Shown here: piece after piece, positions 5,528-21,652 of the stretch
Position numbering within the stretch: position 1 is the first letter of the stretch
Layout: each line of letters starts with the position of its first letter
Origin: Escherichia phage vB_EcoM_WFC
Direction: 5' to 3' (one strand)
DNA length: 64,000 bases
Sequence record: NC_048195.1
Made by a program: the position numbers and the translations under genes
Notes under the pieces: generated by a model
Told to the model about the DNA's origin: nothing
The model's database searches: none
What the model saw: only the letters and a program-made list of their open reading frames with translations

Positions 5528-6379
5528 ATGGCTTTTAAAGCTTCGAAAAAACGTGAACGCCGCTCACCCGATAGAATCGGGCGCGGCAGTCCGATAATCC
5601 CATCAAACGCTATTGCGATGGCCTACCGTCGTGAGATGAAAGGTCTTTGCTATGCGATGATTGATGACTATCAGGCAGGCATTTCAGAATGGCTTGACAA
5701 GAAGCAGGTGCAGAAGTTTTTTGCGCAAGACTCTGCTGATTCGACATTCCAGACCCTTATGAAACGGCTGCAACTGAAATGGGCAAAGGCGTTTGCACGT
5801 GTTGGGTCGAAGATTGCCGCTGATTTTATCAAATCGGTCGAAAAGGGTGCCACTTCTGCTACATTCGCAAGCCTTAAGTCCGCAGGCATAGAAGCGCCAA
5901 AGGCCACATATAACAAATTCGTTGAGAACACTCTTAGAACAAGCGAGAAGTTTAACACGACTCTAGTGACTAAGGTCGGCGAGGATATTCACAACAGAGT
6001 GTACGAAGCAGTCATGCTTTCGCTGACTTCTCCCGACCCAGCCCAGCAAGGCACGTCAGGCATTCAGGCGGCATTGCGAAACGTAAAACACTTCTCTGCA
6101 AAGAGAGTCGACTTGATCGCTAAAGACCAGACAAGCAAATTGTATTGCGTTCTAAGCGATGAAAGGATGCGCCAGAATGGAGTCGAAGAATTTGAGTGGG
6201 CGCACTCAGGAGCAGGAAAGGAGCCGCGAATCTCTCATGAACACGTCGACGGAATGAGATTCAAACTTGATGACAAGCGCCTATGGGAAGTTGGCGGCGA
6301 ATTGAAGTTCAAAAAGGGTGACATCGGTCCTCCTGGATGGGCAATACACTGCAAGTGCAGAAAAATACCAATCATTTGA
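5528..6379 (+). CDS. head morphogenesis protein (Mu F / SPP1 gp7-like)
   Basis: 284 aa directly after the portal gene (ATG 5528 adjacent to the portal stop); sequence pattern remembered for minor head proteins of this family. Confidence 0.7.
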   Translation: MAFKASKKRERRSPDRIGRGSPIIPSNAIAMAYRREMKGLCYAMIDDYQAGISEWLDKKQVQKFFAQDSADSTFQTLMKRLQLKWAKAFARVGSKIAADFIKSVEKGATSATFASLKSAGIEAPKATYNKFVENTLRTSEKFNTTLVTKVGEDIHNRVYEAVMLSLTSPDPAQQGTSGIQAALRNVKHFSAKRVDLIAKDQTSKLYCVLSDERMRQNGVEEFEWAHSGAGKEPRISHEHVDGMRFKLDDKRLWEVGGELKFKKGDIGPPGWAIHCKCRKIPII

Positions 6380-6386
6380 GGTCATT

Positions 6387-7307
6387 ATGACGATACCAAT
6401 CAGCACGTTTCCTCTATCTGGACAAACGCCAGTATTGCCTGCTGTATATGCTAACGGTTTGGCGATTGTTTCAGAATTTACATCCGATAAAAACCTGATT
6501 GTTCCATTGAGTCCGCCATTGGCGTCTGGATACAATTCAGTTGGTCAATTCTTTATGATCGGTAATGATGGCGATTCTACCAGCAAGCCGAATCTGACAC
6601 TTTCAGTTCCCAAAATGAACATAACAGACGTGCAGACTGGTTTAACTGCATCTACAATCACCATCGCTTTTGGAGAAGCAGTGATTATAGGAATGGAGTC
6701 TGGAGGGTCAAAGAATGCTGTCGCCGTTAAAGTGGTCAAATCAAGCGGCAACCAATACACGTTACCAGCGGCAACGGCTTCTGTTCTCGGCGGCGTCAAA
6801 ATAGGAAGCGGAATAAGCGTCGCAGGTGACGGTACAATTAGCGTTACTCAATACTCATTGCCGATTGCGTCAGCATCTACTTTAGGCGGCGTAAAGGTCG
6901 GTACAACTCTATCAATTGATGGTTCCGGTGTGCTTAACGCAGCGGAAAGCACCGTCCAGAATGCCACGAACAGTGTTAGCAATCCTCCAACCACTTTGGT
7001 TAATCTGGCGACCTTAAACCTTCCTGCAGGAAAGTGGCTTGTGACGGCAAGTCAGTTGACTGTCGCGACAGCAGGAATTCAAGCGAATACCGGAATTACA
7101 GCCAAATTGTCAACAAGCGATTCAGATATTACGGATGATGCATTTACGATGTCAGCTGGCATTCGGGCTGCAGGTCGTTTCGGCGGCAATATTCCAACAA
7201 AGATAATCACTCTTGCCGCGCCTGGCAACGTGTATCTAAACTATCAATGCACAGAGGCGTTGACATCTACCGTTTACGGACAGATCACCGCAATCAAGCT
7301 GAACTAA
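6387..7307 (+). CDS. structural protein with tandem fibre-like repeats
   Basis: RBS GAGGT before ATG 6387; internal repeats TLPAATASVLGGVKIG / SLPIASASTLGGVKVG typical of phage fibre or decoration proteins. Confidence 0.55.
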   Translation: MTIPISTFPLSGQTPVLPAVYANGLAIVSEFTSDKNLIVPLSPPLASGYNSVGQFFMIGNDGDSTSKPNLTLSVPKMNITDVQTGLTASTITIAFGEAVIIGMESGGSKNAVAVKVVKSSGNQYTLPAATASVLGGVKIGSGISVAGDGTISVTQYSLPIASASTLGGVKVGTTLSIDGSGVLNAAESTVQNATNSVSNPPTTLVNLATLNLPAGKWLVTASQLTVATAGIQANTGITAKLSTSDSDITDDAFTMSAGIRAAGRFGGNIPTKIITLAAPGNVYLNYQCTEALTSTVYGQITAIKLN

Positions 7308-11657: not shown

Positions 11658-12113
11658 ATGTCATTAGATTACGAAAAGTTCAGAATTAAATTTCCACAGT
11701 TTGCTGATCAGGTTAAATTTCCTGACACAACACTTCAAGTATTCTATGACATGGCATGTGAATTTATTGAATCACAAGACAGTCCTTGTCGTGTTTTAAA
11801 TGGCAGTAAATTGGAGCTGGCATTGGAATATATGACGGCTCATCTTTTATGCATAGCCGCAGACCAGCAAGTGTCTGTGTCTTCTGGTGACGGAGTTGAA
11901 CAAGGCGGCTTCGTGACTGGCGCAACAATTGGTGACATCACAGTGAACAAAGTTGCGCCGCCTGCGAGTGATGGCTGGGAATACTGGCTGTCAAGCACTC
12001 CTTATGGCATGGCGTTGTGGGCGCTTCTTCAAGCACTGGCCGTTGGCGGCTTGTCATTCGGTGGGCTTCCAGAGCGCGAAGGATTTCGTAAAATTGGTGG
12101 GGTATTCTGGTGA
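11658..12113 (+). CDS. hypothetical head-tail joining protein (151 aa)
   Basis: ATG 11658 preceded by AAGGTGA; position between capsid and tail genes. Confidence 0.5.
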   Translation: MSLDYEKFRIKFPQFADQVKFPDTTLQVFYDMACEFIESQDSPCRVLNGSKLELALEYMTAHLLCIAADQQVSVSSGDGVEQGGFVTGATIGDITVNKVAPPASDGWEYWLSSTPYGMALWALLQALAVGGLSFGGLPEREGFRKIGGVFW

Positions 12114-12496
12114 GGATTCCTGGCGTAAACTTATATCGAGTTGCGACAAAGGTCATCGGTCGCCAACCGATTCAATATTACATGTACAAGGGGCGCACCC
12201 TTGATAAGATGCGCAACTATGTAACTACATATGAAGAACCAATCACCTTACTTGCTTCGGTGCAGGCTGTACTTCGAAACCAATACGTTGAGCTTGGTTT
12301 AGAGCTTCAAAAGAACTATGTCAAAATCTGGGTGGACAAAGACATTGTTGACCTTGACCGCGACGCTTCCGGCGACTATTTTGTGTTTGGTGGCAAAACG
12401 TACAAGATGGAAGATGAAACGACATGGTTTGACCAAGATGGTTGGACGTCTTGCCTTGCCGTGGAAGTAAAACAAAGCTTTCCAGTGTCTACTTGA
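12110..12496 (+). CDS. hypothetical protein (128 aa)
   Basis: 4-nt overlap with the upstream gene; late array. Confidence 0.5.
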   Translation: MRIPGVNLYRVATKVIGRQPIQYYMYKGRTLDKMRNYVTTYEEPITLLASVQAVLRNQYVELGLELQKNYVKIWVDKDIVDLDRDASGDYFVFGGKTYKMEDETTWFDQDGWTSCLAVEVKQSFPVST

Positions 12497-12503
12497 GGTG
12501 TAT

Positions 12504-13079
12504 ATGACAGATGTCGACCTGATTGACATGCTGGCAACGCGAATTGAAGAAGGTCTGGCGGCGTATAGTCGTGCAGACCTTTCTGCTGTTCCGGTCCAGA
12601 AAAAATACCAACCGACTCAACAGGGCATTCCGACTGGTGATCAGATTTGGTTTAACCTTTTATTCTCAGTCCCATTCGGTTGGTCAATGAGAAAGAATGA
12701 ATTTGTCAATGATGAATCTCAATTCGTTAATGGCAAATTTAAAGATATTGAAGATCAGATATACGCAACACGTTTTCAAATTAGCGGCTTATTTCCAGAA
12801 GTTCCTGGCAATCCAGAAAAGCCTACGGCTAATGACGTTTTGACTTATTTAGCAAGATTCATAACCCACAAGGCTAATTTGAGGGATTGGTTTAAAAGGC
12901 ATCAAGCTTCAGTATATAGAGTCGACATGAACAACAATGAAAAGTTCTATGACGACATGTCTCAGTTTGAATCGTTTCCTTCTTTTGATTTGGTAATCCT
13001 TCACAGAAACGCAATTTCAATTTACACGCCTGCTGTTGCAAGAGCTGTTAATAACGATTTAGGCGATATTCCGGTGTGA
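12504..13079 (+). CDS. hypothetical protein (191 aa)
   Basis: ATG 12504 preceded by GAGGTG; late array. Confidence 0.5.
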   Translation: MTDVDLIDMLATRIEEGLAAYSRADLSAVPVQKKYQPTQQGIPTGDQIWFNLLFSVPFGWSMRKNEFVNDESQFVNGKFKDIEDQIYATRFQISGLFPEVPGNPEKPTANDVLTYLARFITHKANLRDWFKRHQASVYRVDMNNNEKFYDDMSQFESFPSFDLVILHRNAISIYTPAVARAVNNDLGDIPV

Positions 13080-13080
13080 T

Positions 13081-13566
13081 ATGACAAAATCAAAAATGAT
13101 AGAAAAACAGATAAAGGCGCTTCAATCGATGAAGGGTCTTACTGTTGAAGCAGGATGGTTTGATTCTACCAGATACCCTTCAGAAACTGGTGGGGAAGGC
13201 ATGTTGGTGTCAGAAGTCGCGCGGCTTAATGAATTTGGTCACATAGCCGTTTTGAACTTTGGGCAAGGGCCAGTCAGGGTAGAAGTGCCACCCAGACCAT
13301 TCATGAGATATGCCTATGAATTATTCGTTAGTGAGCGCAGTGAAATAGAGAATAAAATTGCTAAAAAGATTTTTTCCGGTAAAATAGACGCTAGACAGGC
13401 ATTAGGTCAGATTGGGCTTGCGATGGAAGCAAAGATTGTCGAATCAATTAAAAACGGACCTTGGCAAAGAAACGCCAGATATACCGTGCGTGTGAAAGGA
13501 TTCGACAAACCTTTAATTCACAGCAGCCTTATGTGGCAATCTGTCAACAGCCAAGTCATTAAATAA
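13081..13566 (+). CDS. hypothetical protein (161 aa), possible neck or tail-completion protein
   Basis: Position immediately upstream of the sheath gene. Confidence 0.5.
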   Translation: MTKSKMIEKQIKALQSMKGLTVEAGWFDSTRYPSETGGEGMLVSEVARLNEFGHIAVLNFGQGPVRVEVPPRPFMRYAYELFVSERSEIENKIAKKIFSGKIDARQALGQIGLAMEAKIVESIKNGPWQRNARYTVRVKGFDKPLIHSSLMWQSVNSQVIK

Positions 13567-13578
13567 GAGGACACCGAC

Positions 13579-15117
13579 GTGATCAGTCAATCTCGTTATA
13601 TTAAAATTGTATCAGGGGTCGGAGCAGGCGCGGCTGTTGCAGTTCGCAAACTGTCGCTTCGCATCATGACTTCCAATACAGTTCTGCCGCCAGGCATTGT
13701 AGCAGAATTTTCAACTGCTGATGCCGTTGGATCATATTTCGGTTTTTCTTCCGAAGAATACAAGCGTGCAGCACTGTATTTCGGATTCATCAGCAAGCAA
13801 ATCAACTCGCCTGATTCAATCAGCTTTTCTCGCGTTGTATCCACGGCGATTCCTGCAATGGTTATCGGCGACACTGAGCCTAAAACGCTTGCTACTTTCC
13901 AGGCATTCACTGGCGCTATCTTAAGCATCACTTATGACGGCACAGACTACCTGACTGACGCCATCAACCTTTCAGCGGCAACAAGTCTTGCCAACGTAGC
14001 GGAACTTTTGGAAACGGCAATCAACACCAAGTTTGCAGCAGAAGGTGGCACGTCGGTGCCTGCACTTGCTGATGCGGAAGTGTATTGGAATGCCAACACC
14101 CAGCAGTTCACTTTGGAAGCCGCTCCGTCGACCGCTGGTGCTGGAAACCTTTCGATTAACGTCACAGGTCAACCGACAGACCCATCTCAGGCGCTTGGTT
14201 GGACGACTACTGGCACCGTTACGGTTGCTGGACAGGGTGTAGCAAGTCCGGTAGAAGCCATCGCGGCATCTGTGGAGATTTCCAACAACTTTGGCTCATT
14301 CCTTTTCGCTGGAGCAGACCGAACGCTGGAAGAAATCACAGCCGTTGCAGCTTGGACTCACTCGCAGAACAACATGTACATGTATCTGTTCTCGACTGCA
14401 TTCGCCAACATCGGCTCATACTATACCGCGTTGAAAGGTTACTCAGGCGTTGGTATGATGATCCGTGCAACTAACCTCGCGAATGATTACATCGACCAGG
14501 CACCTGCTGAAATTCTTGCGGCGACAAACTATAACACTGTAAATGCAACTCAAAACTATATGTATTATCAGTTTGAAACGCGAAATGTAACCGTATCGAC
14601 TGATTCACGCGCAGATACTGCTGATCAAAACCGTGCAAACTATATCGGTGCGACTCAGCAAGCTGGTCAAACTCTCGCGTTCTTCCAGCGTGGTGTTCTG
14701 ATGGGCGGGTCTACCGCAGCAGTTGACATGAACACTTATGCCAACGAGATGTGGCTTAAATCTGCTATCACTTCTCAGCTGTTCAGCATGTTCTTGAATC
14801 TTGGTCGCGTGCCTGCAAACGAAGAAGGCAAAGCGACTGTCCAAGCCATGATTCAAGTTGCTGTTGACAATGCGAAGGTTAACGGCACCATCTCTGTCGG
14901 TAAGGCGCTGACGGAAATTCAGAAACAGTACATCACGCAAACCTCCGGTGACAACACTGCTTGGCGCCAGGTTGAGACTATCGGTTATTGGTTGACTGTC
15001 GATTTTGACACTGAAACCACTTCCGATAACCGCACCGAATACTATGCAACATACACGCTAATCTACTCTAAAGATGATGCTGTGCGTCGCGTTGAAGGTC
15101 GTGACGTTCTTATTTAA
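13579..15117 (+). CDS. tail sheath-like protein
   Basis: 512 aa, GTG start with AAGAGG RBS; immediately upstream of the tube gene; size and order typical of contractile-tail sheath. Confidence 0.6.
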   Translation: MISQSRYIKIVSGVGAGAAVAVRKLSLRIMTSNTVLPPGIVAEFSTADAVGSYFGFSSEEYKRAALYFGFISKQINSPDSISFSRVVSTAIPAMVIGDTEPKTLATFQAFTGAILSITYDGTDYLTDAINLSAATSLANVAELLETAINTKFAAEGGTSVPALADAEVYWNANTQQFTLEAAPSTAGAGNLSINVTGQPTDPSQALGWTTTGTVTVAGQGVASPVEAIAASVEISNNFGSFLFAGADRTLEEITAVAAWTHSQNNMYMYLFSTAFANIGSYYTALKGYSGVGMMIRATNLANDYIDQAPAEILAATNYNTVNATQNYMYYQFETRNVTVSTDSRADTADQNRANYIGATQQAGQTLAFFQRGVLMGGSTAAVDMNTYANEMWLKSAITSQLFSMFLNLGRVPANEEGKATVQAMIQVAVDNAKVNGTISVGKALTEIQKQYITQTSGDNTAWRQVETIGYWLTVDFDTETTSDNRTEYYATYTLIYSKDDAVRRVEGRDVLI

Positions 15118-15164
15118 ATAATTGCCGCCGTAAATGGCGGCCATCTCTCTGAGAGGAATCTGTA

Positions 15165-15632
15165 ATGATTAACGTTTCCGGTTTTGGCGCTTCGATTCGT
15201 TTGGTAGCATCAAACACTTTTCCGAATGGTGTGACTCTTTCTGATTTTGCAGATGATGCTGATCCGATTGACGCGCCGGACCTGCAAATTTCTGAGGCTG
15301 CAATGGGCCTTAACGGTGACTTAGTAGTATGGAACCGTGCAAACCCGCTTGAAGTAGGTGTGAACATCATCCCTACTTCTGAAAGTGATGTCAACTTGGA
15401 CGTTCTTGCAGCTGCAAACCGCGTAGGCAAGCGTAAGAACTCTGCAAAAGACGTGATCACACTTGTGCTGACTTATCCTTCTGGAATGGTTATCACGCTA
15501 AACAAAGGCACCTTGACAACTGGTTCAGTAATTCCTGGCATCCAGTCTCAAGGTCGTGTGAAAACACGTCAATATCGCTTCAAGTTTGAGAACGTAGTCA
15601 AAACTGGCGTGAGCAACCAAGAGATTTTATAA
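15165..15632 (+). CDS. tail tube protein (paralog 1)
   Basis: 155 aa; N-terminus MINVSGFGASIRLVA and overall pattern shared with the ORF at 16583. Confidence 0.6.
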   Translation: MINVSGFGASIRLVASNTFPNGVTLSDFADDADPIDAPDLQISEAAMGLNGDLVVWNRANPLEVGVNIIPTSESDVNLDVLAAANRVGKRKNSAKDVITLVLTYPSGMVITLNKGTLTTGSVIPGIQSQGRVKTRQYRFKFENVVKTGVSNQEIL

Positions 15633-15961
15633 TGTATCAAATACCACTTGACAGCGTACCTAACCAGAATATCAGCTTTAACGTTGACGGTGCATATTGG
15701 CAGTTGCACATTTTTGCCGCTATCGAGCACATGTGCGCCGACGTATACCGCAACGGTGAACTTTTGATTCAAGGGGTGCGCTGTTTTGGTGGTATCCCAA
15801 TGGTGCCTTATAAGTATCTCATGATTGGGTACGGTAATTTCATTTTCGACAGCGTACCTGATTATGAAAGTTTTAACTCTGGCGGCTGTAATCTATATTA
15901 CATGTCAGAATCTGAGTTGGCTGAATTCCAGGCCACTGCTGAAGCGGAGTTTGCAATTTGA
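15632..15961 (+). CDS. hypothetical protein (109 aa)
   Basis: Tightly packed in the tail gene array. Confidence 0.45.
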   Translation: MYQIPLDSVPNQNISFNVDGAYWQLHIFAAIEHMCADVYRNGELLIQGVRCFGGIPMVPYKYLMIGYGNFIFDSVPDYESFNSGGCNLYYMSESELAEFQATAEAEFAI

Positions 15962-16314
15962 CAACTCTAACCATTGAAGTGAACGAAAATAATGACCTTT
16001 TTCTACCTGATGGAAGAAACTTAAATATTCTTTCAGGAGAAAAAGCGATGGTGCAAGTAATCAAGGCCGCGCACCAGATGCGACTTGGCGAGGACTTGTA
16101 CGATATAGAAAACGGTGTCGATTATTTGGGGACCGTTTTCAAGTCGCCCGTTGACGAAGACGGTGCGCGAAAGTCGATTGCAGATGCTATTCTGAAGAAA
16201 GCAGACGTTGCCGGAATCGACTCATTGACTGTCACCATCCAAAACGGTATCCTTGGATTCACTGCAGAAGTGGTGACTATTTATGGCGAACGTATAAAGG
16301 TGAGTAATCAATAA
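15958..16314 (+). CDS. hypothetical protein (118 aa)
   Basis: TTG start in the ORF track; an internal ATG exists, so the start is uncertain. Confidence 0.4.
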   Translation: MTTLTIEVNENNDLFLPDGRNLNILSGEKAMVQVIKAAHQMRLGEDLYDIENGVDYLGTVFKSPVDEDGARKSIADAILKKADVAGIDSLTVTIQNGILGFTAEVVTIYGERIKVSNQ

Positions 16315-16580
16315 TGGCACAAGTAATTCATTTTGCAAATGGCGTCATGAAATTTGGCGAAAAATTTGAAGACGCATCAGAGCTGTTTAATAAGAAGGTT
16401 GAGCCTGTTGCAGAAATCAAAGAGCAGGTCGAAGAAAAATCCGTTGAACAAAAACTAGATTTTGATTCCATGAGCGTTTCAGAATTGAAGTCTTATGCTA
16501 AAGAAAATGGCATTGACATCAAGGGTCTTTCTTATAAGGATGAAATTCTTGCTGCAGTTAAATCTGCATCTGCGGAGTAA
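16314..16580 (+). CDS. small protein with C-terminal helix-extension-helix (Rho_N/SAP-like) motif
   Basis: 88 aa; MSVSELKSYAKENGIDIKGLSYKDEILAAVK. Confidence 0.45.
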   Translation: MAQVIHFANGVMKFGEKFEDASELFNKKVEPVAEIKEQVEEKSVEQKLDFDSMSVSELKSYAKENGIDIKGLSYKDEILAAVKSASAE

Positions 16581-16582
16581 AC

Positions 16583-17080
16583 ATGGTCAATATTAGTGGA
16601 TTTGGCACAAGCATTAGAATTGTCGCTCTTCAATCTTTTCCTGTTGGGCTGAATATCAGTTCTTTGTCTGATGACCAGGATTCGCTAATTATTGAGGAAG
16701 TTGAATCAGTAGGTTATCAACTTACTTACGACGGCGGCATTTGCATATACGACAAAGCCGCCGTCGTTCGCGTATCCATTGCGGTCATTCCAAACACTGA
16801 AGACGACATAAATCTTAAGCTTTTATTATCTGCCCGTAAAGGTGGATTCAAGTGGTTGCCAATTCAGGATGTGACATCGATGCTCATTACATATCCTGAC
16901 GGTGGAAGGGTGGCATTCTCTAACGGAACGATAATCAGCGGTCCGCTTGGCGACTCCATAGAGCAATCAGGCCGTCGCAAGACAAACCGATACACATTTG
17001 TGTTTGCCAGCTACGGTGGCGCACAGAGCACGTCTCAAATTGCCAAGGGCGTGGTGCAGAGCATATTGGGGTCCATTTAA
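16583..17080 (+). CDS. tail tube protein (paralog 2)
   Basis: 165 aa; MVNISGFGTSIRIVA and the ITYPDGG / GRRKTNRYTF segments align with the 15165 protein. Confidence 0.6.
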   Translation: MVNISGFGTSIRIVALQSFPVGLNISSLSDDQDSLIIEEVESVGYQLTYDGGICIYDKAAVVRVSIAVIPNTEDDINLKLLLSARKGGFKWLPIQDVTSMLITYPDGGRVAFSNGTIISGPLGDSIEQSGRRKTNRYTFVFASYGGAQSTSQIAKGVVQSILGSI

Positions 17081-17613
17081 TGGCTATCGATTTACTGTCA
17101 TATAGTCTATCAAACAGAAGCTTCACGATAAAGAGCTTCAACCTTGGAGAAGTATCCACGCTTGGATGGGCCATAGTCAACGTCAAAATAAGACTCCAAG
17201 CGAAGATATTCAAAAACCAAAGGGAAGACGGCAGCTATATTGTCGATGGCAGAGTAAAGATGCCGCGAATACTCACTGTCACCGTGATAGCTCAGACGAA
17301 AAGCGCATCAGATGCAATAGCTAAGATGTTGCAAAACAGGTCGACTATATACACAATTAATTCCCGTGGTCTAATATTCGAACGTATGGTGCTGCAAAAT
17401 AACAACTTCAGCCAGGACGCTGACAATATAACGTCTCAGCCCATACAATTGGTCTTCCATGAGATATTAACACAGCAGGATGTGTCTATTCAAACAGCGC
17501 AGGCAGGCGACTCAACAGTAATAGAGCGCGGCATTGCATACATAAAAGAAACTTCTGCCAGCGTCACTGGCGTCGCTACAAAGGTGATGAATGGTATCAA
17601 GGGGATGTTCTGA
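17080..17613 (+). CDS. hypothetical tail protein (177 aa)
   Basis: Start overlaps the upstream stop; tail array. Confidence 0.45.
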   Translation: MAIDLLSYSLSNRSFTIKSFNLGEVSTLGWAIVNVKIRLQAKIFKNQREDGSYIVDGRVKMPRILTVTVIAQTKSASDAIAKMLQNRSTIYTINSRGLIFERMVLQNNNFSQDADNITSQPIQLVFHEILTQQDVSIQTAQAGDSTVIERGIAYIKETSASVTGVATKVMNGIKGMF

Positions 17614-18173
17614 TGGACTTCGTTTCGATTCTGCTTTCTGGTCAATCTTTGGCCATAACGAATGAGTCAACAGGTCTTCCTGTCTGGACAAGGCTTTCAC
17701 CTGTTTCTGCAGAAATAACATCCCCAGCAGAAACAACTCAATTCCCTCTTGCTGGTACAGCCATGCAGGTTGTCGAAGTATCAAGCACGTCATCAGTAAG
17801 CAATTTACAGGCGGCAAAGGTTGTAATGCCAGCCCATATGGCGTTAAACGTAATTTGCAATGACCAGTCTACAATTGAAAATATCATAAATTCATTTGAT
17901 GATGACGAAGTCACATTTTCAATAACTTCTCGAAGCATCATTGCCAGTAAAATGTCGATGTCCGACGTTGAAATAACCCAGTCAGAAGAAAACTTGAATG
18001 GAGTCTCAATAGTAATAACTTTCGAGCAAACGTCATTTAGCATTCAAGGAAGCTTCGACCCTAAACAATCTGCAGACGAATCATCAAATGGTGTTGCCAT
18101 TAAAGAACCAGTCAGTTTGACTACAACTGTGAGTTCGTTATATAATAAAATAAAATCAACAGTAGGAATATAA
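17613..18173 (+). CDS. hypothetical tail protein (186 aa)
   Basis: Start overlaps the upstream stop; tail array. Confidence 0.45.
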   Translation: MDFVSILLSGQSLAITNESTGLPVWTRLSPVSAEITSPAETTQFPLAGTAMQVVEVSSTSSVSNLQAAKVVMPAHMALNVICNDQSTIENIINSFDDDEVTFSITSRSIIASKMSMSDVEITQSEENLNGVSIVITFEQTSFSIQGSFDPKQSADESSNGVAIKEPVSLTTTVSSLYNKIKSTVGI

Positions 18174-18174
18174 A

Positions 18175-18591
18175 ATGAAGATCACCAACAAACAAACTGG
18201 TCGTACAGTAGAAATTAAAATCAGCAAAATGACTGCGATGGAAGGCTGGAATATTCAGCGTCGATTCGTAGAATTTGCAATGTCGAAAGACCCTGCTTTT
18301 CGTTCAGAGTATACGATGGAAGTGTTGAGCTTTGCAAAAGTCGAGCTTGACGTGGGACAAGAAATCCCATTAAGCACTGGTGCACTAATTGACAACCATC
18401 TTGGTGACTGGGAAAACCTTAAAGAAGTATTTGAAGCAGTTCTCATGGAGAACGGTATAAACCCAGACACCCACGCCGAGCGTGAAGGCTACTGGGAACA
18501 AGCTGGCGGCGAAATGGCTGCAGCATTCATCGGCGAATCGATGCGATTAATCGCGCCATTCCTCAGCGGCGAGACTCCAAACAAGGGGTAA
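18175..18591 (+). CDS. putative tail assembly chaperone (138 aa)
   Basis: Position immediately upstream of the tape measure gene; no motif evidence. Confidence 0.4.
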   Translation: MKITNKQTGRTVEIKISKMTAMEGWNIQRRFVEFAMSKDPAFRSEYTMEVLSFAKVELDVGQEIPLSTGALIDNHLGDWENLKEVFEAVLMENGINPDTHAEREGYWEQAGGEMAAAFIGESMRLIAPFLSGETPNKG

Positions 18592-18594
18592 ACT

Positions 18595-20775
18595 GTGTCT
18601 GACTCATTAGAAAAATTTGTGCTTCAATATACGGTGGACTTGAAAGAGTCCATCAATCGTCTTGAGCAATTGCAAGATAAGGTTGATCAGACAAACAAAA
18701 AGGCAAAATCCGCTGGCAAAGATTTCTCTGGAGCATTCAAAGATGTTTTTGGCGAGCTAAAGCCGCTTACTGGTGAGCTAGGGTCAATTGACGGAATACT
18801 TGCGCGACTGACATATCGTTTTGCCGCGCTCGTTCCTGTTGTCGCAGGATTGGCCGTCGTCGTCAAATCCATCGTTGATGTTCGAAAAGAATACGAAGCG
18901 CAAAGAAAGCTTGGTTTTGAAGCCGGACTCTCTCCAATGGGTGTCGAGCAACTACAACGACAGTTGAATGAAAGTTCAGGCGGCATCCTTGGCGCACAGG
19001 GGTCGCGAGATTTAATCAGCAAAGCTTCTAATCTGGCATTCAATGCATACACCAACCCCGATGTGATGAACAAGGACAACTTGTTGTTGAACAAGATGGG
19101 GACAAGTCCTTTCAACAGTAACGGCGGCATCAAAGACACGAATCAGCTGCTTGATGAAATTGGAACAAAGCTGAGAAGTGTTAATGAGCAAACCGCTCGT
19201 GCCATTGGTGCTCTGGCAGGTTTTACCGCCGATGAAGTCCGCGCCCTTCGCGAGCGCAACCAGTCTGTGAAAGAAAGCACACGCATAAGCGATGAGGAAA
19301 CGGCAAAGCTGCAGCGCCAACAAGCTGCTCTTGAGACTATACGAAATAGTATGGGGCAAATTCAAGAAGATTGGCGACGTATTGAATTGGTCATCGGTGA
19401 AAACGTTATGCCTGCATTCTCGACGCTTGTCAGCAAAACCGCCGATACAGTCGAAGGATTCCAGATGATGTTCCAAAGAATGTCTGACGGATGGAGCGAA
19501 TTTGTCGACAATTTCATTGCTGACTTGAAACACCCGTTTGATAAACAGGCGGCTGTTAACGAGCGTCACGAGCGTGCCGTTGATAGATGGATCACGCAGA
19601 TGGCCGAAGGCGATGTGAAACGCCAGAGGAACCAGGAGCAAAACGCAGCTGAACAACGTTCTGCGCAAGCACTTTTCACTCGCGATATAAACCTGTTTTC
19701 AAGCGCCGTTTCAACATTTGCTGGCGTCATTGATGAGCGACAAGCATGGGCTGCATGGGCTGGTGAAATAGGACGAAGCGCAGGTCAATCTGCCATGCCT
19801 GGAACACCAGCACTAAGTACTGGCGCGACCGTAGGCAACAACTTGGGATCAGGCAATCCGACCGCTTACGACTCAATATATGAGGAAGCATCCAAGCGTT
19901 ATGGAATCCCTGTTGCGATGATGAAGGCCGTAACAGAAGTCGAATCTGGATTCAACCCCAATGCCGTAAGCGGAGCAGGTGCGACCGGACTGATGCAAAT
20001 CATGCCTTCCAACTTCAAGGGTCTTGGTATCACAGACGGCAACGACCCTAGACAAAACATTATGGGCGGTGCTCAACTGTTGAAAGAGTATTTAAACGCT
20101 GCCAACGGCGATTGGAATCTTGCGCTGACGATGTATCACGGCGGCTACGACCGCAGCGGCTGGGGCAAGAATACACGCGCTTATCCTGGAAAGGTCATGG
20201 CCGCTCTCGACCGACAATCCAATGGTGAGTATGCCACGGCAGCGCCGCAAGGTGCACCAGTTGCTCCAGTACTTAGCGGTAGCGGAGCGGAAGCACCAAA
20301 GGGCAGCTATGCACCAGTACAAGGCCAATCGCGCCAAACGGTGCAATACAGGCAATTGCAAGAAGCCATTGCAGGATACCTGAACGTACCAGTTGAGCAG
20401 TTGATGCAGGGACAAGTAAACAAAGGTGATATTGACTTTGCTCAAACTTACCTTAAGCTTGGAACGCAAAGGGATTATATTAAAAATATGCAGCTGGCTT
20501 CAACTCCAGGTGTAAGACCGAACATTCAAGCCGAAGCGATGAAAAACGCTCGTCTTGCTGCATTCCAACTTGAAGCATTCCAGAAATATGGCGGCGACCT
20601 TTCCGCGAATAGTCGACCTGGTGGGCGTGATATTACTATGGGTCAGAAAAACGTTGTCATCAACGTCAACGGCGCTCAAGACCCACGCAGCACGGCGTTC
20701 GAAACGAAACGGGTGCTTGAACAAGATGATATCAACGACATAAACAACCTTACTGCTACACCTTTGAAGTGGTGA
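18595..20775 (+). CDS. tape measure protein with soluble lytic transglycosylase (SLT) domain
   Basis: 726 aa, GTG start; coiled-coil N-terminal part, hydrophobic segment, and an SLT-like block (EVESGFNPNAVSGAGATGLMQIMPSNF ... YHGG). Confidence 0.7.
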   Translation: MSDSLEKFVLQYTVDLKESINRLEQLQDKVDQTNKKAKSAGKDFSGAFKDVFGELKPLTGELGSIDGILARLTYRFAALVPVVAGLAVVVKSIVDVRKEYEAQRKLGFEAGLSPMGVEQLQRQLNESSGGILGAQGSRDLISKASNLAFNAYTNPDVMNKDNLLLNKMGTSPFNSNGGIKDTNQLLDEIGTKLRSVNEQTARAIGALAGFTADEVRALRERNQSVKESTRISDEETAKLQRQQAALETIRNSMGQIQEDWRRIELVIGENVMPAFSTLVSKTADTVEGFQMMFQRMSDGWSEFVDNFIADLKHPFDKQAAVNERHERAVDRWITQMAEGDVKRQRNQEQNAAEQRSAQALFTRDINLFSSAVSTFAGVIDERQAWAAWAGEIGRSAGQSAMPGTPALSTGATVGNNLGSGNPTAYDSIYEEASKRYGIPVAMMKAVTEVESGFNPNAVSGAGATGLMQIMPSNFKGLGITDGNDPRQNIMGGAQLLKEYLNAANGDWNLALTMYHGGYDRSGWGKNTRAYPGKVMAALDRQSNGEYATAAPQGAPVAPVLSGSGAEAPKGSYAPVQGQSRQTVQYRQLQEAIAGYLNVPVEQLMQGQVNKGDIDFAQTYLKLGTQRDYIKNMQLASTPGVRPNIQAEAMKNARLAAFQLEAFQKYGGDLSANSRPGGRDITMGQKNVVINVNGAQDPRSTAFETKRVLEQDDINDINNLTATPLKW

Positions 20776-20779
20776 TAAT

Positions 20780-21652
20780 TTGAAAAAGAGAATCCTTAAA
20801 GTCACCTTATCTATGCCGGATGGCACAAGCCAAGTGCTTGATGAAGGATTGATGCTTAGATGCCGAATCAAAAAGGCAGCACTTTCCGTGCAAAATAAGG
20901 CCACAATCGAAGTCGCAGGATTGACAGGGTACTTGAGAGAGTACCTGCTTTCCAACTTCACCGCATTCAACAAACGTCTGCGTGATCAAGGCCAATTGGC
21001 GGCGAATCACGTCAACGTAACAATTGAAGCTGGATATAGAGAAGGCAACGTTGTTAGCAGCAACTTAGTCTACAAGGGGCAAGTCACAACGGTCGAGATA
21101 ACAGCGCCGCCGCCGAACATCGTCATACGCATCACTTGCTACACCAACCAGATAAACAGGACTAAGTTCATCACTCAAGCTGCACCGTCAAACCCAACAT
21201 TCAAAGAGTTTGTGGAGTGGTCGGCAAAGCAAATGGATATTGATACTGTTATATGCGATACTTCGATTAACAATCAGCGTCTTGTTAACCCAGGCCGCAC
21301 AACATATGTTGCAGCCGCCTTGCTGCTTGAGATTCAGAACTATCAAAGGAACTCTATTGCGGCATATATCGATGATGATACGCTCATCGTCAAGGATAAA
21401 GACAAAATTCTGAATCCAGAACAGATAACGGTGATTGAGGAATTTGTCGGAATACCGATGTGGAACGAGTGGGGTGCTGACTTCACTTGCATGTATAACG
21501 CGGATTTGAAGCTTGCCCAAGGTGTGAAATTCAAATCAGTCTTAAACCCAAGCTTGAACGACACCACATTCGTCATCATGCAACTTGAATATGATTTAGC
21601 AAGTCGTGATGACATATTTACGGTGACGGGCGGCGTTGCACCATCGGCCTAA
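20780..21652 (+). CDS. hypothetical baseplate/tail protein (290 aa)
   Basis: Follows the tape measure gene; TTG start in the ORF track, first ATG at 20813. Confidence 0.45.
   Translation: MKKRILKVTLSMPDGTSQVLDEGLMLRCRIKKAALSVQNKATIEVAGLTGYLREYLLSNFTAFNKRLRDQGQLAANHVNVTIEAGYREGNVVSSNLVYKGQVTTVEITAPPPNIVIRITCYTNQINRTKFITQAAPSNPTFKEFVEWSAKQMDIDTVICDTSINNQRLVNPGRTTYVAAALLLEIQNYQRNSIAAYIDDDTLIVKDKDKILNPEQITVIEEFVGIPMWNEWGADFTCMYNADLKLAQGVKFKSVLNPSLNDTTFVIMQLEYDLASRDDIFTVTGGVAPSA

Follow-up and report, generated by a model that had tools for sequence, protein, structure and literature searches.

The virions of the Pseudomonas phages E217 and Pa193 (genus Pbunavirus) have been solved by cryo-EM. 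In the E217 tail the bulk tube comprises 34 rings, or 204 copies; the E217 paper places conserved charged residues of the tube on the lumen surface and seats gp29 on the gp32 tube hexamer. The cryo-EM papers describe a further protein, the baseplate tube (E217 gp36 or Pa193 gp37), six copies of which make one ring on the axis of the tube. This hexamer tops the baseplate cap, with the last ring of the tube on one side and the ripcord heterohexamer on the other; in the published structures it is the platform for the gp37/gp38 heterohexamer, and it remains on the tube tip after contraction. According to the E217 paper, all cap proteins have the tube fold in common. Bulk tubes accompanied by specialised tube-fold paralogs are also found in T4 (gp19/gp54/gp48) and in eCIS (Pvc1/Pvc5/Pvc7; Afp1/Afp5/Afp7), where the paralogs make up the one or two rings closest to the hub (PMC12546770).

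The tail module of the Escherichia phage analysed here is collinear, gene for gene, with those of E217 and Pa193, and it holds two tube-fold genes, designated A and B. It is very probable (about 0.93) that these are real, ancient paralogs of the contractile-tail tube fold with divided labour, A forming the bulk tube and B the single baseplate-tube ring. The solved structures of related phages of Pseudomonas already show this arrangement. The finding is thus correct but unremarkable, and its main value lies in annotation.

Two paralogs of the tube fold

The window, that is, the whole stretch of 64,000 nucleotides from Escherichia phage vB_EcoM_WFC (NC_048195.1), belongs to an Escherichia Wifcevirus myophage with 99.4% identity to vB_EcoM_SP13/F13. 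Paralog A (15165-15632, 155 aa) and paralog B (16583-17080, 165 aa) are encoded on the + strand and open with a common N-terminal motif (MINVSGFGASIRLVA versus MVNISGFGTSIRIVA), as an earlier note on this DNA had claimed. That note had also pointed to likeness in several internal blocks, and here too the alignments bear it out. BLASTP aligns residues 1-143 of each protein with 47/143 identities (33%), 61% positives and 0 gaps (E=2e-32), and the Smith-Waterman score of 251 compares with 30.8 ± 5.2 (maximum 59) for 2000 shuffles. The similarity is not confined to the N-terminus: with the first 20 residues of each protein removed, the score is 180 against 29.5 ± 5.0 in shuffled sequences (z=30). 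Both proteins match the PF22764 (E217_Gp32) profile far above its curated gathering threshold of 27 bits, A with 203.8 bits (1.2e-60, profile positions 1-143 of 144) and B with 180.4 bits (1.9e-53, positions 2-143 of 144).

The AF2 models of both proteins consist of strands at residues 10-68, a helix at 73-86/89, and strands at 98-148. AF2 and Foldseek thus reveal in each the elements of the tube fold, namely a two-sheet β-sandwich, one long α-helix, and an extended β-hairpin; against the four solved E217 and Pa193 chains, Foldseek gives TM-scores of 0.80-0.89. The homology, orthology, fold, synteny, and expression of the two genes are direct results of this analysis.

Exactly three small open reading frames lie between A and B, the number that the earlier note had counted, and all are on the + strand. 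The first (15632-15961) encodes the baseplate adaptor, or ‘helical bundle’, corresponding to E217 gp33 and Pa193 gp34 (9b45_A, 1.1e-26; 8env_G, 2.4e-26; Pfam Pam3_gp18, 2.5e-16). The second (15958-16314) encodes the sheath initiator, E217 gp34 and Pa193 gp35 (9b45_G, 6.1e-23; 8env_H, 1.8e-21; PHROG 120, 8e-21). The third (16314-16580) occupies a slot that is conserved in position and variable in sequence. Its 88-aa product carries a C-terminal SAP/HeH-like motif (Pfam SAP, 7e-6); a PDB search gave no match to it, and BLASTP found no similarity to SN gp35, which fills the same slot. A Pfam search matched none of the slot genes of four other genera, and the only feature common to the slot proteins of five genera is an N-terminal motif of about 12 residues, I-x-F-A-N-G-V.

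Downstream of B, again on the + strand, lie the genes for ripcord-1 (17080-17613; E217 gp37, Pa193 gp38; 9b45_S, 1.1e-20; PF22760, 3.4e-10), which makes up half of a 3+3 heterohexamer below the baseplate tube, and for its distant paralog ripcord-2 (17613-18173; E217 gp38, Pa193 gp39; 9b45_V, 6.1e-27; PF22760, 5.9e-71). The two ripcords share 21% identity (E=2e-4); homology between B and ripcord-1 is undetectable by BLASTP (E=3.4). They are followed on the same strand by the gene for a tape measure protein with an SLT lytic transglycosylase domain (18595-20775; PF01464 SLT, 2.8e-24), in the position of SN gp40 ‘lytic tail protein’, and by the gene for the baseplate hub (20780-21652; E217 gp41; PF22759 E217_GP41, 6.5e-118), a trimeric tube-fold protein under the ripcords. 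The neighbours of A and B are one-to-one orthologs of E217 and Pa193 baseplate parts, with their order kept.

Bulk tube and baseplate tube

Paralog A is the bulk tail tube protein, the ortholog of E217 gp32 and Pa193 gp33. Among solved chains it matches the Pa193 gp33 tube (9b42_M, 1.4e-48) and the E217 gp32 tube (8fuv_T, 4.4e-42), and more weakly the Pa193 gp37 baseplate tube (2.5e-25). Its AF2 model (pLDDT 77) also finds its best Foldseek match in a solved tube chain, 9b42_M (TM 0.84/0.87). Identity to tube orthologs is 43-55%, versus 30-39% to baseplate-tube orthologs, and A is placed in the tube clade. The tail sheath gene (13579-15117, + strand; Pfam DUF3383, 6.6e-119; PHROG 205 tail sheath, 7e-74) ends immediately 5′ of the start of A at 15165, and the same adjacency is seen in four other genera. 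By analogy with the solved virions, A would polymerise inside the sheath as many stacked hexamers, its rings following the tape measure protein and the sheath wrapping around them. The earlier note had taken one copy to be the bulk tube subunit, and A fits that description.

Paralog B is the baseplate tube, or tail tube-B, the ortholog of E217 gp36 and Pa193 gp37. Its matches are to the Pa193 gp37 ‘baseplate tube’ (9b45_M, 1.1e-52) and the E217 gp36 ‘tail tube-B’ (8env_I, 2.2e-49), with a weaker one to the Pa193 gp33 tube (1.4e-21), and its AF2 model (pLDDT 79.8) likewise agrees best with a solved baseplate-tube chain, 9b45_M (TM 0.82/0.89). It is 51-60% identical to baseplate-tube orthologs, versus 26-32% to tube orthologs, and it is placed in the baseplate-tube clade. 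The gene lies directly 5′ of the ripcord-1/ripcord-2 pair and 3′ of the adaptor and sheath-initiator genes, an order that is retained in relatives. The position, stoichiometry, and assembly order of B in this phage are drawn from the solved virions of E217 and Pa193; position and copy number are transferred from proteins of 51-54% identity because the Wifcevirus virion has no solved structure. On this footing, six copies of B would form one hexameric ring, the uppermost of the baseplate ‘cap’. Above it would come the last ring of the bulk tube, and below it the threefold heterohexamer of ripcord-1 and ripcord-2, itself resting on the trimeric hub and spike. The architecture further suggests that B would be the platform on which A begins to polymerise and that, after contraction, it would remain on the tube tip.

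For the second copy the earlier note had offered three possibilities: a tube initiator, a terminator, or a baseplate-proximal tube-like protein. Since the baseplate cap is topped by a ring of B orthologs, the baseplate-proximal protein or initiator is the right description. That B should instead be the terminator or cap at the head-proximal end of the tube is highly improbable. Tube-fold terminators do exist in some contractile systems, and AFP and PVC caps are among the distant Foldseek matches. Nevertheless, the solved homologs nearest to B (52% identity) are located at the baseplate end, its gene sits amid baseplate genes, and the phage has its own collar (PF22755) and gateway (PF22756) genes, together encoded at 12110-13079. 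The gateway protein (12498-13079, + strand; PF22756 E217_gp29, 6e-38) is a terminator-like neck protein that caps the tube on the head-proximal side, and it is because this gene is separate that the terminator reading is rejected. Neither A nor B matches PF22756 or is gpU-like.

The two paralogs differ by a C-terminal extension past the tube core (conserved G-A-Q-S ... Q ... L-G tail); B has it, as do 29 of 30 database homologs, and A lacks it. In the AF2 model of B the extension is predicted to be helical at residues 150-164, and this segment is amphipathic, with a hydrophobic moment (muH) of 1.40 versus 0.67 ± 0.33 in shuffles. The helix region has no coordinates in the deposited Pbunavirus structures, where 8env_I comprises 152 residues and 151 of the 167 residues of 9b45_M are modelled. 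It is possible, if less likely than not, that this helix of about 15 residues (approximately 150-165), which all baseplate-tube orthologs conserve and the bulk tube lacks, is what functionally separates the baseplate tube from the bulk tube. Its docking partner might be the sheath initiator or the first ring of the sheath; were the helix turned inward, the partner might be the tape measure protein. If so, the C-terminal helix of B would define the start point of sheath and tube polymerisation.

The proteome of vB_Eco4M-7, a Wifcevirus with 98.2% identity to this phage across 13500-18600, shows that both paralogs are expressed. The counterpart of A, vB_Eco4M-7_49, was detected with 6 peptides, 52% coverage, and a score of 283, and the counterpart of B, vB_Eco4M-7_53, with 3 peptides and a low score of 4.5, these scores being a rough proxy for abundance; vB_Eco4M-7_52, the counterpart of the 16314-16580 product, had a high score. 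The sample was a ‘phage protein lysate’ in which a helicase and other non-structural proteins were also present, and the data therefore speak for expression rather than for strict incorporation into virions. In E217 and Pa193 the orthologs of both copies are built into the virion maps. The much stronger signal of A fits a many-to-few stoichiometry. A regulatory signal for the 34:1 ratio was sought, and none convincing was found: a 6-bp GC hairpin at 15124-15141, between the sheath and tube genes, lacks a T-tract on the + strand, and the counts of promoter-like and terminator-like sequences are no different from shuffle expectation.

Another proposal is that A and B are both bulk subunits, either mixed in a co-polymer or used as alternatives. 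The two share a fold, and both keep the charged residues that the E217 paper assigns to the lumen surface (D30, D31, and R131, invariant in the alignment). The proposal is nonetheless very unlikely to be right, in view of the single protein that makes up the E217 and Pa193 tube and the single ring formed by gp36/gp37, the mass spectrometric signal of B, far below that of A, and the clade-specific C-terminal helix that B has and A lacks.

Spread, age, and annotation

The gene order of this module recurs in Pbunavirus SN, Bcepfunavirus BcepF1, Myosmarvirus SMP, and Carpasinavirus FoX7. A tblastn search with B matched 733 places in 378 phage records, from which it follows that nearly every record holds both copies; the pair is found in about 370 phage records from at least five genera. 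Across genera, orthologs are 42-55% identical for the tube and 50-60% for the baseplate tube, versus 26-39% between paralogs. A neighbour-joining tree, built from only 11 sequences and with low bootstrap values inside the clades, separates two clades, the baseplate-tube clade with 86% bootstrap; the protein that a Bordetella phage has in single copy lies with the tube. The duplication is older than the divergence of the at least five genera.

This conservation disposes of the notion that B is a redundant copy, or one in decay, and has no function of its own, which has hardly any probability left. Nothing favours it except the low mass spectrometric score of B. The orthologs of B in five genera are, at 50-60% identity, slightly better conserved than the bulk tube (42-55%), several other Wifcevirus records encode it with 100% identity, and it is kept in about 370 phage genomes.

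GenBank, the PHROGs, and the Pfam name wrongly call both proteins ‘tail fiber protein’. Most of the Wifcevirus records in GenBank, and many of the Pbunavirus ones, label the tube, baseplate tube, ripcord-1, and ripcord-2 either in this way or as ‘hypothetical protein’, and the mislabel is carried in PHROG 2420, PHROG 2580, and the description line of PF22764. The label seems to go back to the name used in a deposition. The GenBank, PHROG 2420, and PF22764 annotations are themselves all that speaks for A and B being tail fibre proteins, and the chance that they are correct is practically nil. Both proteins have the β-sandwich-plus-helix tube fold; their best structural matches are tail-tube and baseplate-tube chains, followed by other phage tubes, CIS tubes, and Hcp; and the E217 and Pa193 papers name their orthologs tail tube and baseplate tube. 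Each is compact and globular, rather than a fibrous trimer or a protein with a receptor-binding domain, and the solved structures refute a fibre identity. Correct labels for the tube and baseplate tube matter to anyone who engineers the host range of therapeutic or biocontrol phages by swapping genes called ‘tail fiber’.

Comparison with known systems

E217 gp32/gp36 and Pa193 gp33/gp37 (PDB 8fuv, 8env, 8eon, 9b42, 9b45) belong to the same Pfam family as A and B and have the same fold, with 51-54% identity per orthologous pair. The present phage differs in its genus, Wifcevirus, and in its host, E. coli/Shigella. The small gene that precedes the baseplate tube cannot be aligned with its Pbunavirus counterpart save for the short N-terminal motif. 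The tape measure protein has 726 aa, compared with 858 aa in Pbunavirus SN, and the tail therefore probably has fewer tube rings.

Pakpunavirus P7-1 (tube gp77, tail tube-B gp78, tail tube-C gp79) likewise makes its baseplate cap from coaxial hexameric variants of the tube, and its tube proteins form outer contacts via their C-terminal helices. In P7-1, however, it is the bulk tube whose C-terminal helix is longer, the variants being shorter, whereas here the baseplate variant is the longer protein (165 versus 155 aa) and has the extra helix. There are two homohexameric variants in P7-1; here there would be one, together with a heterohexamer.

The likeness to T4 and the eCIS is one of design principle. 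By ring order, B would take the position of gp54/Pvc5 and the ripcord ring that of gp48/Pvc7; the ring order comes from the literature, and the Foldseek matches of B and A to AFP and PVC baseplate tube chains are distant (8-12% identity). Sequence similarity to T4 and the eCIS is undetectable, with Foldseek identities of about 8-15%. The ring next to the hub differs as well, being a 3+3 heterohexamer of two paralogs in the present family and a homohexamer with a LysM domain in T4 and the eCIS. The locus is a further example of a general rule of contractile injection systems, in which duplicated tube-fold proteins lower the sixfold symmetry of the tube stepwise to the threefold symmetry of the spike.

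Identity and fold of the two paralogs

An earlier note had described two related ORFs separated by three small genes. Both are present on the plus strand at exactly the coordinates given there, and are here called A (15165-15632, 155 aa) and B (16583-17080, 165 aa); the three small ORFs between them are 15632-15961, 15958-16314 and 16314-16580. The resemblance of A and B covers nearly the whole protein in pairwise alignment and is not limited to the N-terminal motif pointed out in the note. BLASTP aligns residues 1-143 of both without a gap (33% identity, 61% positives, E=2e-32), and the Smith-Waterman score of 251 (30.8 +/- 5.2 in shuffles) is still 180 when the first 20 residues are deleted (29.5 +/- 5.0 in shuffles). 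The similarity is therefore real and near full-length.

Both proteins match Pfam PF22764 (E217_Gp32; 1.2e-60 for A, 1.9e-53 for B), and a sequence search of the PDB tells the two clearly apart. The closest solved relatives of A are the Pa193 'tail tube' gp33 (9b42_M, 1.4e-48) and E217 gp32 (8fuv_T, 4.4e-42), from two Pseudomonas Pbunavirus phages whose virions have been solved by cryo-EM; those of B are the Pa193 'baseplate tube' gp37 (9b45_M, 1.1e-52) and E217 gp36 (8env_I, 2.2e-49). The cross matches are 2.5e-25 for A with Pa193 gp37 and 1.4e-21 for B with the solved tube. AlphaFold2 models computed from a 31-sequence alignment (mean pLDDT 77.0 for A, 79.8 for B) predict a beta-sandwich and a long helix, as in tube proteins. 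The top PDB match is 9b42_M for the model of A (TM 0.84/0.87) and 9b45_M for that of B (TM 0.82/0.89); below these come the other paralog and then other myophage tubes, CIS tubes and Hcp (8-19% identity). Residues D30, D31 and R131, invariant and common to A and B, match charged lumen residues of E217 gp32, given a 6-residue numbering offset.

The proposal that one copy is the bulk tube and the other a baseplate-proximal tube-like protein is supported by both the PDB sequence search and the model matches, A resembling the tube chains and B the baseplate-tube chains. The alternative of a tube terminator is excluded for either protein; a separate gateway/terminator-like gene (PF22756) lies with a collar gene (PF22755) among the neck genes upstream. 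A and B are the known tube/tail tube-B pair of Pbunavirus-like myophages, here in a Wifcevirus genome, an arrangement that is already known and will not surprise a specialist.

The surrounding tail module

The 27 phage records that match 13500-18600 in megablast all belong to Wifcevirus phages of Escherichia or Shigella. The best matches are vB_EcoM_SP13 and F13 (99.4% identity), and the present genome is almost identical to deposited ones. The BASEL-collection paper describes Wifcevirus as distant relatives of Pseudomonas Pbunavirus and annotates their structural genes from the Pbunavirus virion cryo-EM structure (PMC11990801). The neighbors of A and B are one-to-one orthologs of E217 and Pa193 virion components, in conserved order: sheath (13579-15117), A, helical-bundle adaptor (15632-15961, 1e-26), sheath initiator (15958-16314, 6e-23), a variable small gene (16314-16580), B, ripcord-1 (17080-17613, 1e-20), ripcord-2 (17613-18173, 6e-27), a 138-aa PHROG 4627 gene with no Pfam match (18175-18591), tape measure protein with an SLT domain (18595-20775) and hub (20780-21652; PF22759, 6.5e-118). 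The annotated order is identical in Pbunavirus SN, Bcepfunavirus BcepF1, Myosmarvirus SMP and Carpasinavirus FoX7.

Directly downstream of B, the ripcords form a second, far more diverged paralog pair (21% identity, E=2e-4), both matching PF22760 (Gp38_E217) and PHROG 2580; their orthologs in the solved virions form a 3+3 heterohexamer below the baseplate tube. The locus thus contains two successive tube-fold gene duplications and a tube-fold hub. The label 'tail fiber protein', carried by the tube, the baseplate tube and both ripcords in many GenBank/RefSeq records, by PHROG 2420 and 2580 and, as 'Tail fiber protein gp32', by the description of PF22764, is a systematic mis-annotation, and recognizing it as wrong is the practical by-product of the analysis. 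Names also conflict among the structures: PDB 8env calls gp36 'Ripcord', whereas the Pa193 paper keeps that name for the next two proteins.

The 88-aa product of 16314-16580 has a SAP/HeH-like motif at its C-terminus (Pfam SAP, 7e-6). Its position is kept in five genera, but the proteins encoded there have no more in common than a ~12-residue motif at the N-terminus (I-x-F/Y-A-N-G-V); the tails behind it vary and are acidic or Pro-rich. The counterparts in E217 (gp35) and Pa193 (gp36) are not mentioned in the text of either paper. In mass spectrometry of a lysate of the Wifcevirus phage vB_Eco4M-7, the ortholog _52 (9.8 kDa; 10 peptides, 65% coverage) has a score of 2929, among the highest and exceeding sheath and tube. 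Possible roles are those of an assembly factor or of an abundant, disordered part of the virion.

The module genes are tightly packed or overlapping, apart from a 47-nt gap between sheath and tube. This gap holds a perfect 6-bp GC hairpin (GCCGCC-GTAAAT-GGCGGC, 15124-15141; fold z-score -2.0), with no T-tract on the plus strand and a T-rich tail on the minus strand only, which may serve in RNA stability or processing. The gene at 18175-18591 adjoins the tape measure gene upstream, the usual place of tail assembly chaperones; it is not overlapped by any plus-strand ORF of at least 40 aa that would hint at a G/GT-type frameshift product.

Age of the duplication and constraint on B

A tblastn search of 50,697 phage records with B finds 733 places in 378 records, so that both copies occur in nearly every one. 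Across five genera, identity is 42-55% among tube orthologs, 50-60% among baseplate-tube orthologs and 26-39% between paralogs, and a neighbor-joining tree sets the two clades apart (bootstrap 86% for the baseplate-tube clade). The duplication is therefore older than the split of these genera. B is under no less constraint than A, and the idea that it is a decaying copy is rejected on that ground.

A lone PF22764-type tube gene (6001-6462) is seen in the 40-kb Bordetella myophage vB_BaM-IFTN1, with the sheath gene on one side and a small gene and the tape measure gene on the other; tblastn detected no baseplate-tube paralog in this phage. The single-copy protein falls with the tube clade and offers a natural outgroup for dating the duplication.

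B carries a C-terminal extension that A lacks, with the consensus G-A-Q-S-x-x-Q ... L-G-L-L in 29 of 30 database homologs. It is predicted with moderate confidence to form an amphipathic helix (residues 150-164), and is absent from both deposited baseplate-tube models (8env_I, 152 residues; 9b45_M, 151 of 167 residues modelled).

Expected copy number and place in the tail

In E217 the tube consists of 34 stacked gp32 hexamers. There, three gp37/gp38 heterodimers attach to gp36 and reduce the symmetry toward the trimeric hub gp41 and the tip gp43; after contraction, the distal tube tip retains gp36, gp37/gp38 and gp41. The Pa193 paper reports the same arrangement. Orthology predicts ~150-200 copies of A and 6 of B. 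At 726 aa, the tape measure protein is shorter than that of SN (858 aa), a sign that the tail may be somewhat shorter too.

Both paralogs are expressed, since both were detected in vB_Eco4M-7 (98.2% identical over 13500-18600), in a phage lysate that also contained helicase and so does not represent strict virion proteomics. The tube (_49, 16.5 kDa) gave 6 peptides, 52% coverage and a score of 283, and the baseplate tube (_53, 17.6 kDa) 3 peptides, 25% coverage and a score of 4.5, signals that fit a many-to-few ratio. Ripcord-1 (_54, 19.6 kDa; 3 peptides, 16% coverage) scored 9.5 and the sheath initiator (_51, 12.8 kDa; 6 peptides, 46% coverage) 163.

From the architecture, B is inferred to nucleate the polymerization of A. 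The analogous series T4 gp48/gp54/gp19 and Pvc7/Pvc5/Pvc1, in which specialized tube-fold rings precede the bulk tube (PMC12546770), likewise point to this role.
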